From: Candidatus Sulfobium sp. | GTDB taxonomy: Bacteria; Nitrospirota; Thermodesulfovibrionia; Thermodesulfovibrionales; UBA6898 | Direction: 5' to 3' | Length of the DNA stretch: 37,519 nucleotides | Assembly: GCA_037380845.1 (NCBI GenBank) | Contig: JARRRI010000012.1 | Coordinates: 10,454 to 47,972, forward strand | Part shown: positions 9,001 to 15,000 of the stretch, one piece after another | Numbering within the stretch: the stretch's first letter is position 1 | Layout of the letters: each line of letters opens with the position of its first letter | Position numbers: made by a program

Positions 9001-12000
9001 GGAACACCGGGACATACAGACCGTGGAGGGGAAGGAGGTTTATTATCTCAGGGGTGACATGCTGCCCATAATAAGGGTAGGCAGGTTCTTCGATCTCAAG
9101 GGCGACGACAGTGAGAGGTCCTTCGCGGTGGTGGTCGGCTTAGGGGAGCGGAGAGTGGGTGTCCTTGTCGACGAACTGTACGGCCAGCAGGAGATAGTCA
9201 TCAAATCGCTTGGGGACTATCTGAAAAAATTAAGGGGGTTTGCAGGTGCCGCCGAGATCGGGAAACACAATGTGATCCTTGTCCTCGATATAGAGTCCCT
9301 GATCGACGAATCTGTTATTAAGCAGAAGGGGGTTGCCAATGTTTGAGGAATTCTACGGGCTGAGGGCCAAACCTTTCAGCAAAACCCCGGACCCCCGGTT
9401 TCTTTTCCTCAGCAGGAGCCATGAGGAGGCCCTTGCCCGGATGCAGTATGCCGTGGAGGAAAAGGAACTGATAATGCTGACCGGGGAGGTAGGGTGCGGC
9501 AAGACGACCCTCACCCGTGCCCTGATGGACACCCTCGGCCGGGAATACCGGGTGATCAATATCATCAATCCCAGGCTGACACCCGCCCAGTTCTTGAGGA
9601 CGGTCGCCATGAGGATGGAAACGGAGATACACTCCTCCCACAAGGCAGACCTGCTGGAGGGCATTTACGGGAAAGTGTACGAATACTTTGAAGAAGGCGT
9701 TTCTCCCGTAATTATTATCGACGAGGCCCAGTTGATCCCGAGCAAGGACACTTTTGAAGAGATACGCCTCCTTACTAATTTTCAGCTGGACTACACAAAC
9801 CTTCTCAGCCTGATTCTGGTGGGACAGCCCGACCTGAGAAAAAGATTGAACCACAGGGCATACATGCCCCTTAAGCAGCGTATCGGCCTCTTCTTTCATC
9901 TCGGCCCGATTGCCGAGGATGAAATAGAGGATTATGTGACGCACAGACTGAAGGTCTGCGGACGGGAGGACATGCTGTTTACCGGAGATGCATTGAGGGC
10001 ACTGTATCTATACTCGGGCGGGGTACCGAGGCTGATCAACAGCATCGCCACCTCGGCGCTCCTGGACGGGTTTGCGAGGGAAGTTACGGTCATCACCGAG
10101 CCCTTTGTAAAAGGGGCGGCAGGAGAACTGGGGTTGGATGGATATAGCGAAAATTAGAAAGAAGGCCAAAGAAAAGGAGCTGAAGGCGGCGCAAAAGCAT
10201 GAGGGACCTGCCGGAGAGGAGATCGGGCCGGCCGCCGGCCCCCCGGAGGTCCCGGCTGAAGAGACAGACACGATCCGGGAGGTCTCTGAGGAAGCCGAAG
10301 ATCCGGCGGGCGAAGACCTGATAAGAGAGAGCGGGCCTCTGCCGGAAGCCCTTCAAACCGAAGCGGTCGCGATACCATACGAAGAGGAGCGGGAGGAGCC
10401 GCATGAGAACGAGGCACCGTCATCCGAAGCGACTGTCGAAGTCCTTGAACTGCTCTCTTTTACTGTGGCTGAAAAGGAATTCGCATTCAGGATTGCCGAT
10501 GTGGAGGAGATTATACCCTATCAGGGTATAACCCTTGTACCTCTGCTGCCTCATTATGTCAGCGGAATAACGTCCCTCAGGGGAAAGATCATCCCGGTCA
10601 TCGACCTCAAGTCCAGGTTTGCCCTCGGACAGGCCCGGGAGCGTTCCACTTCCTCCGGCAGTCCGGAGACAAACGGCGCAAAGGGAAAAATACTTATTTT
10701 GTCGGGTCCAAAGGGCATTATAGGAGCTACCGTTGATAAGATCAAAGGGGTGGTGAGATTCCCCGAGGACAGCATGCTTGCCCCCCCGGCGCATTTGACC
10801 GAAGAGGAAAGGAAGTTTATAGACGGCGTAGTAATACAGGAAAAACGTTTCATATCCATAGTCCGGTTCGGGGACGCTATGAACATAGAGCTCGGCTGAA
10901 GGAGGGCATATGCGCGCAACTCTTGAAGTTAAAATATTGGCCCTTGTTGCCTTTCTCCTGCTCATCGGGGTGGCTGCAGCGGGGGTCATGGTGATGACAA
11001 TCGAGAAAGCCAGCCTGTACGGAATTACTGAGAGCAGTTCCGAGGCCGCGGCCAATATTATCGCCAGGGACATTGAGAGGACGATGCTCGACGGCAGGGC
11101 CGATATTACGAAGGAACTGATCCATGACCTGAAAGGCACAAGCGGAGTGAACGAAATCTCGGTGCTTGATTATGAGGGCAGGCCGGCATTTGACAAGAGT
11201 GCCGCGGCTACCGAAAAGTCCGCTCTCAGGCAGATAGGACGCAGCGGTAAACCGTTTCTTGTGAGGGGGGTAAAACAGCTGACATTTTATAAGCCCCTGA
11301 TCAATTCCGGAAAGTGCAGGGAATGCCATGCCGGAGACCCTGAAGTCCTCGGCGCCGTCAAGGCTTCCATGTCGATAGAGAAGGAGTACAACAGTGCAGT
11401 CAAGTATATAAAGTTTGTTATCGTGGCGACGATCCTTGCCAGTCTTTTTTTCAGTTTCATACTGTGGGCGGCGGTCAGGAGGACGGTGATCAGTCCCATC
11501 CGGTCGCTGGAGTCGGCGGCCCTGAAATTGTCGGGCGGGGACCTTACCTTCGATGTCGATTTGAAGAGCAGGGATGAGATAGGAAGGCTCGGCAGGGAGG
11601 TGCGCGATTCGCTCGTGTCGATCTCCGGCATCCTGGGGAGGATCAAGGACGTTTCCGGGCGTGTATCGCGCGTGGCTGAGGACGTCGAGAAGGAATCCAG
11701 ACAGGTCGTCAATGGTACCATGCTTGAAACGGAGGCGGTAAACAACATTTCTTCGTCAGTAGAAGAGATGAATGCCGGCATGACCGAGATCGCAGACGGC
11801 ACGGACGGACTTGCGGCGTCGGCCGAAGAGACTGCAGCGTCCATGGAGCAGATGGTCACCAGCATCTCGGAGATCAAGGGCAGTACGGAGGACCTCTCCA
11901 TGGCGGTCGAATCTGCGTCGACCTCCATAGGCCAGTTGTCCGCCGCGATCAAGGAGGTTTCTGACAATGCCGGAGAACTGGCGGAATCGGCGGAGGAGAC

Positions 12001-15000
12001 GCAGGCTGCGATTATCGAGATTTCCACTTCCATTAAAGAAGTGGAGCAGCGGACAAAGGAATCGGCGATGCTTTCCGACAAGGTCAAGAACGAGGCCGTC
12101 ACATTCGGGATGACCTCGATCGAGAAGACGATCGACGGGATGAAGAATATAAAGTCCTCAGTGGAGAAGACCGCCTGTTACATAGAAAAACTCGGCGGGC
12201 GTTCGGAGGAGATCGGCAAGATACTCGTCGTAATCGACGAGGTGACCGACCAGACCACCATGCTGGCCCTGAACGCCGCAATACTGGCGGCCCAGGCCGG
12301 AGAACACGGCAAGGGCTTTACGGTGGTTGCGGATGAAATAAAGAACCTGGCGGACAGGACCGCCGCTTCGACCCAGGAGATCGCCGAGCTGATACAGGCC
12401 GTCAGGCAGGAGGTGAGCGACGCCTCAGGGGCGATGAACGAGGGGCTGCGGTCGGTGGAGACGGGCTTCAAGGTTACCAATGAGGCTGTTGACGCGCTGA
12501 GAAAGATAGTGGAGAGTTCGAGGAAATCCTCGGAAATGACCGCAGCGATCGAGCAGGCGACGGCGGAGCAGTCGAAGGCCGCAAAATTTGTTTCTTCCGC
12601 AATGGAAAAGGTGCTGGGTATGGCCGGACAGATCGCACGGGCGACAACGGAGCAGAACAGGGGAATCCAGCTGATTATGAATGCCACGCAGAAGATAAGC
12701 GATGTCACCATTCATGTCAAAACCGCGACTAACGAGCAGTCCATGAACAGCAAACAGATCTCGCAGGCGGTGGAGCTTGTCTCTGACAAGAGCCAGCAGA
12801 TGTCCAGGGCGGTCAACGAACAGAAAGTAGGCTCCAGCCAGATCCGGGATTCCGTCCAGAAGATAAGAGACCTCCCGAGGGAGAACAGGGAACGTGCGTT
12901 CCGGCTTAATCAAATGGTGAAGGATCTCATGAAAGATGCGGAACTGGCGGTTACGGAAATGGGCAGATTTACCTTTGCAGAGAGGACATCTTCAGGTCTT
13001 CTGAAGATGGGCATCGTTCCCCTTGAAGCTCCGGCCGTCATGTTTAAAAAGTTCAACCCGCTGGCCGAATACCTGGGCGGAGTATTGAAGCGCAGGATAG
13101 ACCTGAGGGTGGCCGTGGATTTCGAGGGCGCGGTGGAGGACATAGGCAAGGGGACTACGCAGATATGTTTTATGACGCCTTCCACTTATGTGGAGGCCCA
13201 CCGGAAGTACGGAGTTCGGGTGCTGGTAAAGGCCCTGACGGAAGGCAAGCCTTTCCATCACGCCGTTATCGTTACGCGTAATGACAGCGGGATAGACTCC
13301 CTCGAAGATCTCAGGGGGCGCTCTTTCGCCTTCGGCGATCTCCATTCTACTTCCAGCCACATTGTCCCAAGGGCCATGCTTCTCGAAGCCGGCGTGGACT
13401 TAAAAGACCTGCAGTATTACAATTATCTCGGTCATCATGACGACGTTGCCCGCGCTGTGGTAAGCGGCGATTTCGACGCGGGCGGCATAATGGAATCGAC
13501 AGCCGAAAAGTTCAGGGGCGAAGGGCTGAAATTCCTCATGGTTTCGGAAGACATACCTGAATTTAATATCTGTGTGGCCGATGGTGTTGAGCCCGGGACT
13601 GTTGCGGAATTGACCAATGCGCTGGTCTCTCTCCATGAGGGAACGCCTGAAGGTGCGGCGATTTTGAAGTCCATCAACATCGGTTACACCGGGTTCGCCC
13701 CTTCATCGGACGAAGATTATGACAGCGTAAGGAAGATGATGTCGAAAATAGGGCTGGCCTGAGGTGATGGATGGCGGGGTTAAGCCGGAGGGAAGATCGT
13801 ATGAAAACAAAGGAGGTCTTTGACGGTGGAGCTCGTAAGATGATGTCCGGTAAATCCTTGAATACCAAGTTTCTGGCGGCCCTGTTTGTAGTCCTTTTCA
13901 TAGGGCAGTCTATAGGAAGTGGCATCGGATTTCTTTACATGAGGTCGGCACTTCTTGAGTCGCTGCAGAAGAGGCTAAGAAAGGCTGCAGCCGTTACCGC
14001 GGAGGTAATCACGGGGCCTCTCCTCAACTACGACTATGCTCCGGTTGACGCCTACCTTGACAGGATGATGAAAGACGAAGATATCCTGTCGGTCCGGGTG
14101 CTCGACAGCGAAGGGAAGGTGTTAAAGGAAAAGGTGCGGAAGACGGACTATGAAGTGTCGGCCCTCAACTTCTTTCTGTTCAGGAAGGCCATGTCGCTTA
14201 CTGTTCCGGTGGTGGCCGCCGGATCGAAGGTGGGCGAGATAGACGTCGGCTACAGCGCCCGGAGTATTAACGGCGACATGTCGGCCGGCCTGTTCAGCAT
14301 TTCCCTCTATGAGATCTTCATGCTCCTGGCGGTCGGCGTCACCATGCTGTTTCTCTTCAACAGGAATATAAGGAAGCCGGTTTCGGAGATAAACGGTGCT
14401 ATAGAAAAGATTACCGCGGGCAAATTATCGACCCGTTTGCCGGACCTCGGAGACGACGAAATAGGGAGTATAGCCAGGGGGATATCGTACCTTGTGGAGA
14501 GGTTTTCCGGGACGGTCTCGAAACTCAATTCAACGGCGGTGAATGTTTCGATGGCGATCAAGCAGGTCGACGTGACTTATGACAATGTCACAGGCAGCAC
14601 GAGGAAACAGTCGGACTCCATAAAGGACATCATAAAGTCCATTAACGGCGCTAACAGGGCCCAGTCGGATATAAATGACAAGGCTGAGAAATTATCGGGT
14701 GTTTCCACAGAGAACGTGTCGGCTCTCATACAGATGAAGGCCACCGCCGAGGAAATAGCGGCGAATACGCAGAGGCTGTTCAAGGCGACGGAGGATTCTT
14801 ATTCGGTCGTCGCAGAGCTGGCCCATACGGCCAAGGCGATCTCCAAGCACTCGCACGAGGCGTTGTCGGCGGTGGAAGAAACGTCTGCTTCAGTGGAAGA
14901 GATAGGCGCCTCTGTCCGGGAGGTAGAGGAGCATGCCAGGGCGTCTTCAAGGATGGCTGAGAAGGTCAGGGAGGTCACCTCGGAGAACGGCATGCTGACG

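Follow-up and report, generated by a model that had tools for sequence, protein, structure and literature searches.

A chemoreceptor of Candidatus Sulfobium with a periplasmic haem-c sensor and a cytoplasmic PtxB-fold tail, a putative anion input to a probably non-flagellar pathway

Introduction

Haem-c sensors of chemoreceptors have been described in Geobacter sulfurreducens, where GSU0582 and GSU0935 respond to redox, NO, and CO according to the available parts of the source, which mention no C-terminal binding domain for either. A second, cytoplasmic input behind the signalling hairpin is found in Azospirillum brasilense Tlp1, in which a C-terminal PilZ domain for c-di-GMP tunes the sensitivity of a receptor that controls swimming. 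Geobacter cluster 5 (EsnBC, GSU2220-2222) has been linked to matrix and surface colonisation, and receptors of the 40+24H type exist in the Geobacteraceae.

The PF12974 (Phosphonate-bd) fold is represented by PtxB, PhnD, and HtxB, which serve ABC transporters as binding proteins for reduced phosphorus; PtxB proteins are exported. Phosphate is bound by the wild-type forms of PtxB and PhnD with affinities of about 50-180 μM. The Y208F substitution in PtxB lowers phosphite affinity about 1000-fold, leaving a Kd of 295 μM, and in Te_PtxB it essentially abolishes phosphate binding (Kd >60 mM). In Pm_PhnD, an acidic residue, D205, accepts the proton of mono-anionic phosphite (PMC5700983), and D206 plays the same role in HtxB (PMC6629693). 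In AioX, ArrX, TtrS, and ThsS, the same fold detects oxyanions of arsenic or sulfur from the periplasm and signals to histidine kinases; thiosulfate and tetrathionate are sensed by PhnD-like domains, and ThsS is inhibited by sulfite (PMC5408782). In the available part of one review (PMC8050422), Phosphonate-bd is mentioned for AioX only.

The receptor architecture considered here is already catalogued, a possibility that the preliminary description of this DNA had foreseen. A 2013 figure legend gives Phosphonate_bd as a C-terminal chemoreceptor domain (PMC3604760, Fig. 8), and the accessible portion of a 2021 supplement lists GCA_002011815_00024 of Nitrospirae bacterium JdFR-86 in cluster 1183 of Data Set S4, with TM1 at 10-29, TM2 at 166-188, HAMP at 189-227, MCPsignal at 398-569, and Phosphonate-bd at 700-937 (PMC8547431). 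These coordinates are nearly identical to those of our receptor, and the haem sensor is unannotated in that listing. In all, 74 Phosphonate-bd domains in chemoreceptors are catalogued. The entries available in these two sources name no ligand, do not analyse the pocket, and assign no pathway, and the literature searched yielded no experimental work on a chemoreceptor with a C-terminal Phosphonate-bd domain. Our preferred reading of the Candidatus Sulfobium protein, to which we give a little less than an even chance, is a two-input receptor in a non-flagellar pathway whose tail putatively binds an abundant, protonated, three-oxygen anion of the cytoplasm.

Results

The receptor gene is intact and its tail is cytoplasmic

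The window, the whole stretch of 37,519 nucleotides of Candidatus Sulfobium DNA that was analysed, contains a 950-aa chemoreceptor gene at 10910..13762 on the + strand, where all features given below also lie. Open reading frame and Pfam analysis revealed a haem-c sensor, a 64-heptad MCP hairpin, and a C-terminal PF12974 domain, and a Shine-Dalgarno sequence (AGGAGG, 10900..10905) lies 4 nt 5' of the ATG. The gene is genuine and uninterrupted. Contigs of runs X1 and X5, from which the DNA may derive, cover 6874-18877 unbroken, and a contig of run X10, from another study, covers 11591-13659 with 1 difference. An assembly chimera or read-through at the junction of MCP and tail was rejected, as the run contigs span it and 70 orthologues exist.

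Pfam places Mcp40H-20_sensor at residues 50-157, HAMP at 189-232, MCPsignal at 398-568 (E 3e-44), and Phosphonate-bd at 700-937 (E 3e-64). By hydropathy, there are only two hydrophobic spans, the TM1 region at residues 1-36 (10910..11017) and TM2 at residues 162-190 (11393..11479), the last to cross the membrane. HAMP, at about residues 189-237 (11474..11620), leads into a signalling hairpin of residues 238-688 (11621..12973), whose arms of 227 and 223 aa amount to 32.4 + 31.9 heptads (about 32+32), as in MCP class 64H (40+24H); motifs of the methylation type occur at 281, 302, and 309. A short linker (12974..12997), modelled with low AlphaFold confidence at residues 691-694, connects the hairpin to the type II binding-protein domain (12998..13759). 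Pfam and hydropathy thus agree on the topology first proposed, two N-terminal TM segments followed by HAMP, hairpin, and tail, and the cytoplasmic placing of a PtxB-fold tail is upheld by hydropathy and AlphaFold, with no span after residue 190. The top 19-residue window past residue 200 scores 1.13 and is a beta-strand of the binding domain in AlphaFold, and a third membrane span that would put the tail outside was rejected on these grounds. The full-length monomer model has a pTM of 0.39 and carries no information on how tail and hairpin pack.

The periplasmic domain (11057..11380) is of the GSU0582/GSU0935 type, as the preliminary description had recognised in calling it a haem-c sensor. 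It matches 3b47 (E 3e-10) as well as the Pfam profile, it contains the only CxxCH of the receptor, at residue 136 (11315-11329), and the equivalent of Met60 is conserved as Met59 (11084-11086), so that, as in sCache_heme domains, a CxxCH and an axial Met lie between two TM helices. Across the sensor alignment, the CxxCH cysteines are kept in 177/187 sequences and Met59 in 175/187; haem-c maturation genes are present in the genome. Of 29 other loci (L005-L033), 28 have an intact orthologue, and every one of these contains a single CxxCH and lacks a hydrophobic span past residue ~207.

The che operon probably has a non-flagellar output

Upstream of the receptor, the operon includes a cheY-like receiver gene (6990..7364) and the only cheA found in the genome (7361..9346), followed by an AAA_22 ATPase gene (9333..10157) and cheW (10138..10899). 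Downstream of the receptor are a second long MCP of 697 aa without a C-terminal binding domain (13771..15864), a second cheW (15865..16350), a HEAT-repeat gene (16310..18312; 657 aa in relatives), cheR (18305..19052; 283 aa in the closest relative), cheB (19165..20211), and genes for a GAF-domain protein (20211..21032) and a second CheY-like, single-domain receiver (21044..21412). An insertion of 17 nt at about 17927-17956 splits the HEAT-repeat gene, and cheR is short by 86 nt missing at 18877/18878. Decay of the pathway was rejected as an explanation, since run contigs and relatives show both frameshifts to be assembly artefacts.

The order cheA, ATPase, cheW is that of GSU2222-2221-2220, and the operon resembles Geobacter cluster 5 (group beta, Esn), a resemblance based on gene order and heptad class rather than on sequence comparison. 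Unlike the Geobacter group beta clusters, which have no mcp gene, it has its receptors inside the operon. F10 is a tentative class label here; the literature searched held nothing useful on the F10/64H label.

Chemotaxis, the output initially suggested, is not borne out by the genome. FliM, FliG, and flagellin were not found in this 100%-complete assembly, in which control profiles matched, and by these markers it has no flagellar system, while three PilT-family genes score over the cut-off. FliM occurs in only 30/78 fusion carriers of the order, is absent from the other 48, and occurs in 17/47 carriers outside it. The output is probably not flagellar; instead of swimming, the pathway probably governs pili, matrix, or attachment to surfaces. 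A pathway that steers flagellar chemotaxis, whatever the ligand, seems very unlikely to us: it would suit the complete cheA/W/Y/R/B set and those carriers that do have FliM, but not the missing flagellar genes here or the 48 carriers of the order without FliM. Moreover, families f3, f6, and f10 are all FliM+, yet the receptor class was not found in them, and mutants in Geobacter cluster 5 change matrix and electrode colonisation.

The pocket keeps the PtxB oxygen site but not its latch

The tail matches the PF12974 profile at 217 bits (cut-off 27) and has the two-lobed fold, modelled with a pLDDT of 95.8. Its top PDB match is P. stutzeri PtxB (5o2j, E 1.8e-31), which ranks first among few solved family members and at ~30% identity; Foldseek gave TM scores of 0.81-0.85 against ligand-bound PtxB and 0.82-0.87 against ArrX. 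Common to the tail and to PtxB, Pm_PhnD, and HtxB are the fold, at a TM of about 0.8-0.85, and a Ser-Thr-Ser/His site for the oxygens; the PtxB ligands S130/T131/S132/H160 are matched by S813/T814/S815 (13346-13354) and H843 (13436-13438). In contrast to these proteins, it is cytoplasmic, fused, and without a transporter, and it has Phe/Leu for the Tyr/Asp cap, which in PtxB is selective for phosphite. Of eight PtxB positions that contact the ligand or form the cap, four are changed (D22=L705, Y55=F738, Y100=H783, Y208=F885), three of them aromatic, a difference that the preliminary description had partly noted, and the latch and hydroxyl set of PtxB (Tyr208 with Asp22; Tyr55, Tyr100) is missing. 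Next to the cap lies Glu884 (E884-F885, 13559-13564), which corresponds in position to the acidic D205 of Pm_PhnD.

This pattern is general. Among 115 fused domains from the fetched loci, S813 is kept in 114, E862 in 110, H843 and F885 in 103 each, and E884 in 97, whereas the PtxB-type residues are rare (cap Tyr in 1, Asp22 in 0, Tyr55 in 14, Tyr100 in 9). These residues do not support the binding of phosphite or phosphonate originally proposed for the tail, which probably does not sense phosphite. We hold a cytoplasmic sensor of phosphite or phosphonate to be the least probable of the readings weighed here, even though PtxB proteins are the top sequence and structure matches, the P-H contact would still be possible with an aromatic cap, PtxB Y208F retains some phosphite binding, and Glu884 could stand in for Tyr100 as D205 does in Pm_PhnD. 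Against it are the residue counts above and the small, distant set of solved relatives among which PtxB comes first. The tail also departs from C-P lyase-linked PhnD, which has a D/T/E cap and a phn operon, and scores 120 against TIGR03431 (cut-off 261). A search of the genome, whose outcome also counts against a phosphite sensor, found no phosphite transporter, no PhnE over the cut-off, no PhnJ, no transporter-type or transporter-linked PF12974 protein, and no formate/nitrite-type channel.

Inorganic phosphate, millimolar in the cytoplasm, is the next candidate; a weakened sensor of it would report phosphate or energy status. The retained Ser-Thr-Ser/His site, the acid at 884, which fits protonated phosphate, and the phosphate binding of wild-type PtxB and PhnD agree with this idea, and a universal ligand would account for fusions in both Nitrospirota and Bacillota. 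However, Phe is the cap residue in 103/115 domains, and its introduction into Te_PtxB by Y208F leaves almost no phosphate binding; a fourth substituent is blocked by the aromatic cap; and a universal ligand leaves the scarcity of the fusion in dsrA- genomes unexplained. We rate phosphate as rather unlikely.

A three-oxygen anion, as in our preferred reading, would be expected to bind weakly, because the tyrosine/aspartate latch of PtxB is missing, and weak binding suits an abundant cytoplasmic metabolite. Bisulfite is our first guess, though a tentative one, and bicarbonate a second and less likely one, with other three-oxygen anions making up the remainder. The intracellular oxyanion input proposed at the outset stays the likeliest role of the tail. 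Its nearest free relatives have signalling neighbours in 13/18 loci, and no ABC permease was seen beside them in the 58 flanking ORFs scanned of 146.

The fusion is widespread in the order and follows dsrA loosely

As the preliminary description held, the architecture is conserved in a che operon across the order: a near-full-length match was found in 70/150 other Thermodesulfovibrionales genomes (1 with an internal stop, 1 cut by a contig end), and hairpin plus tail only in 8 more. MCP-PF12974 fusions are also present in other Nitrospirota classes. Conservation is higher in the tail, with a mean identity of 58% to the query, than in the haem sensor, with 44%, and the tail is retained where the sensor is replaced by Cache or 4HB or shrunk to nothing but a TM hairpin. 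Some short MCP-PF12974 fusions have a similar Phe cap. Short fusions as such are frequent in Bacillota, with Acetobacterium woodii and Lacrimispora saccharolytica among the carriers, neither of which is known to reduce sulfate; we count these short fusions against our best reading. A FastTree tree, built with a single row for each domain on a partial alignment and rooted at the midpoint, points to independent origins of the long and the short fusions, although its deep supports are weak.

A tail without a small ligand, serving as a structural appendage or as a tether (e.g. for CheR, CheB, or the HEAT protein), was also considered, and we think it improbable to about the same degree as a phosphate sensor. 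The domain sits after a flexible linker, where pentapeptide tethers sit, it is absent outright from several orthologues with the operon intact, and the strict pocket core is intact in only 79/115 domains, being altered in 36/115 though the fold persists. The altered cores fall in family f12, the orphan paralogues, and genus g104, most members of which are still dsrA+; they also weigh against our preferred reading. Yet between classes, at 40-50% identity, few residues are as well kept as the ligand contacts, free relatives partner kinases and cyclases, and some fusion receptors have no other recognisable sensor domain.

Returning to the three-oxygen anion, we find both dsrA and aprA in the genome. 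Its one further PF12974 gene is flanked by soxA/soxB-like genes on one side and, on the other, by genes for a kinase, a sigma-54 regulator, and a sulfur transporter. Among the 126 genomes of the phylum with the receptor class, the fusion is present in 72/102 dsrA+ and 6/24 dsrA- genomes; the Fisher p of 1e-4 overstates this difference, because the dsrA- genomes come from a handful of lineages and dsrA goes together with further traits of anaerobic life. Three dsrA- families retain the operon with tail-less receptors. Within the order, the fusion is absent from 6/7 dsrA- genomes and also from about half of the remainder. Counting against bisulfite, 30/102 dsrA+ genomes with the receptor class have no fusion. 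Six tail-less orthologues of the order were checked, four from dsrA+ genomes (G136, G109, G137, G090) and two from dsrA- genomes (G011, G070). In G150 (93% complete) and G210 (91%), the pocket is largely intact and dsrA was not found; in G163 and G221, a changed pocket fits the loss of dsrA, but dsrA+ members of the same genus are also altered. Kinship confounds the association between dsrA and the fusion.

Discussion

In the two-input reading, the periplasmic c-haem would exchange His/water ligation for His/Met59, or the reverse, as the redox state changes, or it would take NO or CO, and, judging from close homology, its signal would pass through TM2 and HAMP. The second input lies in the cytoplasm and would act by ligand binding: the C-terminal helix of the hairpin comes back to the membrane-proximal end, and the two-lobed binding domain follows about 10 residues on. 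Ser813, Thr814, Ser815, and His843 would grip the oxygens, Glu884 would take the proton, and Phe885 would form the cap. By analogy with c-di-GMP on the PilZ tail of Tlp1, whose topology is alike although its domain is of another fold, closure of the domain may bias the adaptation region and hence CheA.

In its specific form, in which the tail senses cytoplasmic bisulfite, the compound that passes from APS reductase to DsrAB, and is wired to the periplasmic haem on one receptor, we give the reading a rather low probability. If it is true, non-swimming dsr+ Nitrospirota weigh redox or NO outside against sulfite inside in one molecule, and the comparison decides attachment, pili, or matrix. Bisulfite binding would couple the flux of dissimilatory sulfur metabolism directly to chemosensory signalling, and a reporter of sulfite inside cells could be developed from the domain. 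A ligand screen should be simple, since the tail is soluble, well modelled, 259 aa long, and has a clear pocket signature.

The neighbourhoods of the orphan paralogues consist of housekeeping genes and give no clue to the ligand. Many members of the family carry the name 'phosphate/phosphite/phosphonate ABC transporter binding protein', a common misannotation that can yield false calls of phosphite uptake in carrier genomes.

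Domain architecture and topology of the chemoreceptor

The open reading frame at 10910-13762 (+) encodes a chemoreceptor of 950 aa with Pfam matches to Mcp40H-20_sensor (residues 50-157), HAMP (189-232), MCPsignal (398-568), and Phosphonate-bd (PF12974; 700-937). A hydropathy scan revealed only two membrane spans (1-36 and 162-190), and in the AlphaFold model a helix runs to residue 685, where a brief linker of uncertain structure connects it to the binding domain's first strand. Since both spans are N-terminal, this layout places the PF12974 tail in the cytoplasm, at the membrane-proximal end of the signaling hairpin, whose arms are 227 and 223 aa long (~64 heptads). 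The fusion point is crossed by contigs of public sequencing runs, one of them from a study outside the possible source runs. The observation made in the preliminary description therefore stands, and its interpretation stands in part: the two-span architecture and cytoplasmic tail were borne out by Pfam, hydropathy, AlphaFold, and the run contigs, and conservation held as well, but the cap is not of the PtxB type and no flagellar genes were found.

The receptor belongs to a kind that is already catalogued. Phosphonate_bd has been named among the C-terminal chemoreceptor domains, and such tails were proposed as second inputs (PMC3604760). The supplements of PMC8547431 count 74 Phosphonate-bd domains in chemoreceptors; among the proteins listed there (at least 23), at least 3 are long with near-identical coordinates, at least 19 are short with a C-terminal domain, and at least 1 is periplasmic. 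One long entry, whose taxid was checked, is from Nitrospirae JdFR-86. No functional study of a chemoreceptor with a C-terminal Phosphonate-bd domain was found in the mainly open-access literature searched.

The putative binding pocket of the tail differs from that of PtxB

The tail was modeled with a pLDDT of 95.8, and in structural comparison PtxB and ArrX are similarly good matches to it. Pocket residues were mapped via the 5jvb alignment onto the contacts described in PMC5700983. S130, T131, S132, and H160 of PtxB are retained as S813, T814, S815, and H843, and four positions are altered: Y208, the cap, to F885 (preceded by E884), D22 to L705, Y55 to F738, and Y100 to H783. The same changes run through the whole family: of 115 distinct fused domains taken from the retrieved loci, 103 have Phe as the cap, a non-PtxB type, and 1 has Tyr; position 705 is never Asp, E884 is found in 97 and S813 in 114, and the strict core is intact in 79.

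In PtxB, the Y208F mutation weakened phosphite binding from 0.17 to 295 uM and nearly abolished binding of phosphate and methylphosphonate (PMC5700983). The acid of Pm_PhnD at the position equivalent to 884 contacts the protonated oxygen of mono-anionic phosphite (PMC5700983), and D206 of HtxB has the same role (PMC6629693). Given the kept oxygen site, the family-wide Phe cap, and the acid at 884, the putative pocket looks selected, small, and weak, and may suit a protonated three-oxygen anion, judging from homologues of ~30% identity. We infer that the tail binds an anion and couples this to receptor signaling.

Candidate ligands

Neither PhnJ nor a formate/nitrite channel was detected in the genome, and PhnE gave no hit over the cut-off, leaving phosphite and phosphonates without a visible supply. 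With a Tyr cap in 1/115 and Asp705 in 0/115 fused domains, the phosphite/phosphonate-binding tail proposed earlier was not borne out. Both dsrA and aprA are present in the genome, which makes sulfite a cytoplasmic intermediate. The fusion was found in 72 of 102 dsrA-positive versus 6 of 24 dsrA-negative genomes (126 with the receptor class), a contrast inflated by kinship; of the six dsrA-negative carriers, three have a completeness of 74% or less, and in two the pocket is altered. PhnD-like sensors for thiosulfate and tetrathionate are known, one of which is inhibited by sulfite (PMC5408782).

Counter to sulfite stand, besides kinship, the 30 dsrA-positive genomes that have the receptor class without the fusion, the retention of dsrA in 4 of 6 tail-less order orthologues checked, and the short fusions in A. 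woodii and L. saccharolytica. To our knowledge, neither of these two organisms has dsr, and bicarbonate or phosphate as the ligand would fit, being compatible with their fusions. That the tail is a bisulfite sensor, paired with the heme redox sensor on one receptor, is the boldest reading and has a fairly low probability.

At 13 of 18 loci, free relatives are flanked by kinase, cyclase, phosphatase, PAS, or regulator genes, and no ABC permease was found among the 58 flanking ORFs scanned (of 146), which point to a signaling rather than a transport ancestry. The genome's sole other PF12974 gene encodes an exported tandem protein in a cluster of sox-like, kinase, and sulfur-transporter genes (locus L095:7232-18066, contig C24), which is likely a sulfur-oxyanion two-component system. 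The gene lies between soxA/TsdA-like plus soxB-like genes and regulator/transporter genes; the neighbors include a kinase, a sigma-54 regulator, a YeeE-type sulfur transporter, and a porin, and the pocket motifs of the tandem protein are atypical. At another locus (L092:865-10772), a tail-less heme receptor paralogue adjoins genes for a tandem PF12974 protein, kinase, sigma-54 regulator, and molybdopterin oxidoreductase.

Distribution of the fusion

Among the matches listed, near-full-length matches to the receptor occur in 70 of 150 other Thermodesulfovibrionales genomes, and hairpin-plus-tail matches in 8 further ones. In a 301-genome sample of Nitrospirota, the long fusion is present in 78 genomes including its own: in 4/9 from the class's other orders, and in 11/12, 33/64, and 3/3 of families f20, f22, and f23, respectively; it was found in none of the 131 genomes of families without dsrA. 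The periplasmic part of tail-bearing receptors is exchangeable: it is a heme, Cache, or 4HB sensor or no more than a bare TM hairpin, with the tail constant throughout. Some orthologues have lost the tail but retained the operon. Two orthologues carry what are either real lesions or assembly errors, an internal stop (L017, genome G060) and a tail split off into a separate frame (L070, genome G072).

A second, short fusion type of 610-655 aa, without a periplasmic domain, is found in Nitrospirota and Bacillota. Members of this type (loci L112, L113, L130, and L131; proteins P0158, P0159, P0164, P0165, P0167, P0170, P0171, P0177, and P0181) form a separate clade in the tree, and their tail keeps both PtxB tyrosines with Phe as the cap.

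The periplasmic heme sensor

The periplasmic sensor matches GSU0582 (3b47) with an E value of 3e-10; of 187 aligned sequences, 177 retain the CxxCH cysteines and 175 retain Met59. In the Geobacter sensor, Met60 ligates the heme in its reduced state and loses this position upon oxidation or when NO or CO binds (PMC8396549), and by analogy similar ligand switching may occur here. The family, now named sCache_heme, is frequent in Nitrospirota (PMC12889525).

Operon setting and output of the pathway

The receptor gene lies within an operon of the order cheY-cheA-AAA ATPase-cheW-MCP-MCP-cheW-HEAT-cheR-cheB-GAF-receiver, which is retained in relatives; named relatives, with identities up to 84%, are Thermodesulfovibrionales. 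BLAST found one cheA and three MCPs in the genome. FliM, flagellin, and FliG were not found in this 100% complete genome, in which the controls were detected, and the earlier assignment to chemotaxis is not supported; three PilT-family genes scored above the cut-off. FliM is present in 30/78 fusion carriers of the order and in 17/47 outside it. The output of the pathway, a candidate member of the chemosensory class named F10, is probably not flagellar. Geobacter sulfurreducens GSU2222-2220 has the same cheA-ATPase-cheW order, a likeness at the level of gene order; its mutants fail in electrode colonization (PMC5585712), and Geobacter cluster 5 was tied to the extracellular matrix via unpublished observations (PMC2577667).

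In the window assembly, the HEAT gene is split and cheR is short. The 17 extra nt of the HEAT gene (~17927-17956) are an inverted copy of nearby sequence and are absent from the contigs of 4/4 runs, and contigs of 3/4 runs join across the 86 letters missing from cheR at 18877; both are thus assembly errors. Another 142 nt are missing at 6873, and an ~80-nt gap at 6173-6177 splits the upstream DUF4388 gene, also an assembly error; run contigs contain longer or intact forms of the window's error sites. Four ORFs of 164-381 aa (window 32687-34737, 26367-27065, and 23608-24102) had no Pfam match at E 0.01. Elsewhere, the window encodes a pyruvate-dehydrogenase-type E1 alpha/beta pair (2562-4581, -), a prismane (hybrid-cluster) protein (27255-28925, +), and a GAF-HD protein (34634-36700, +).
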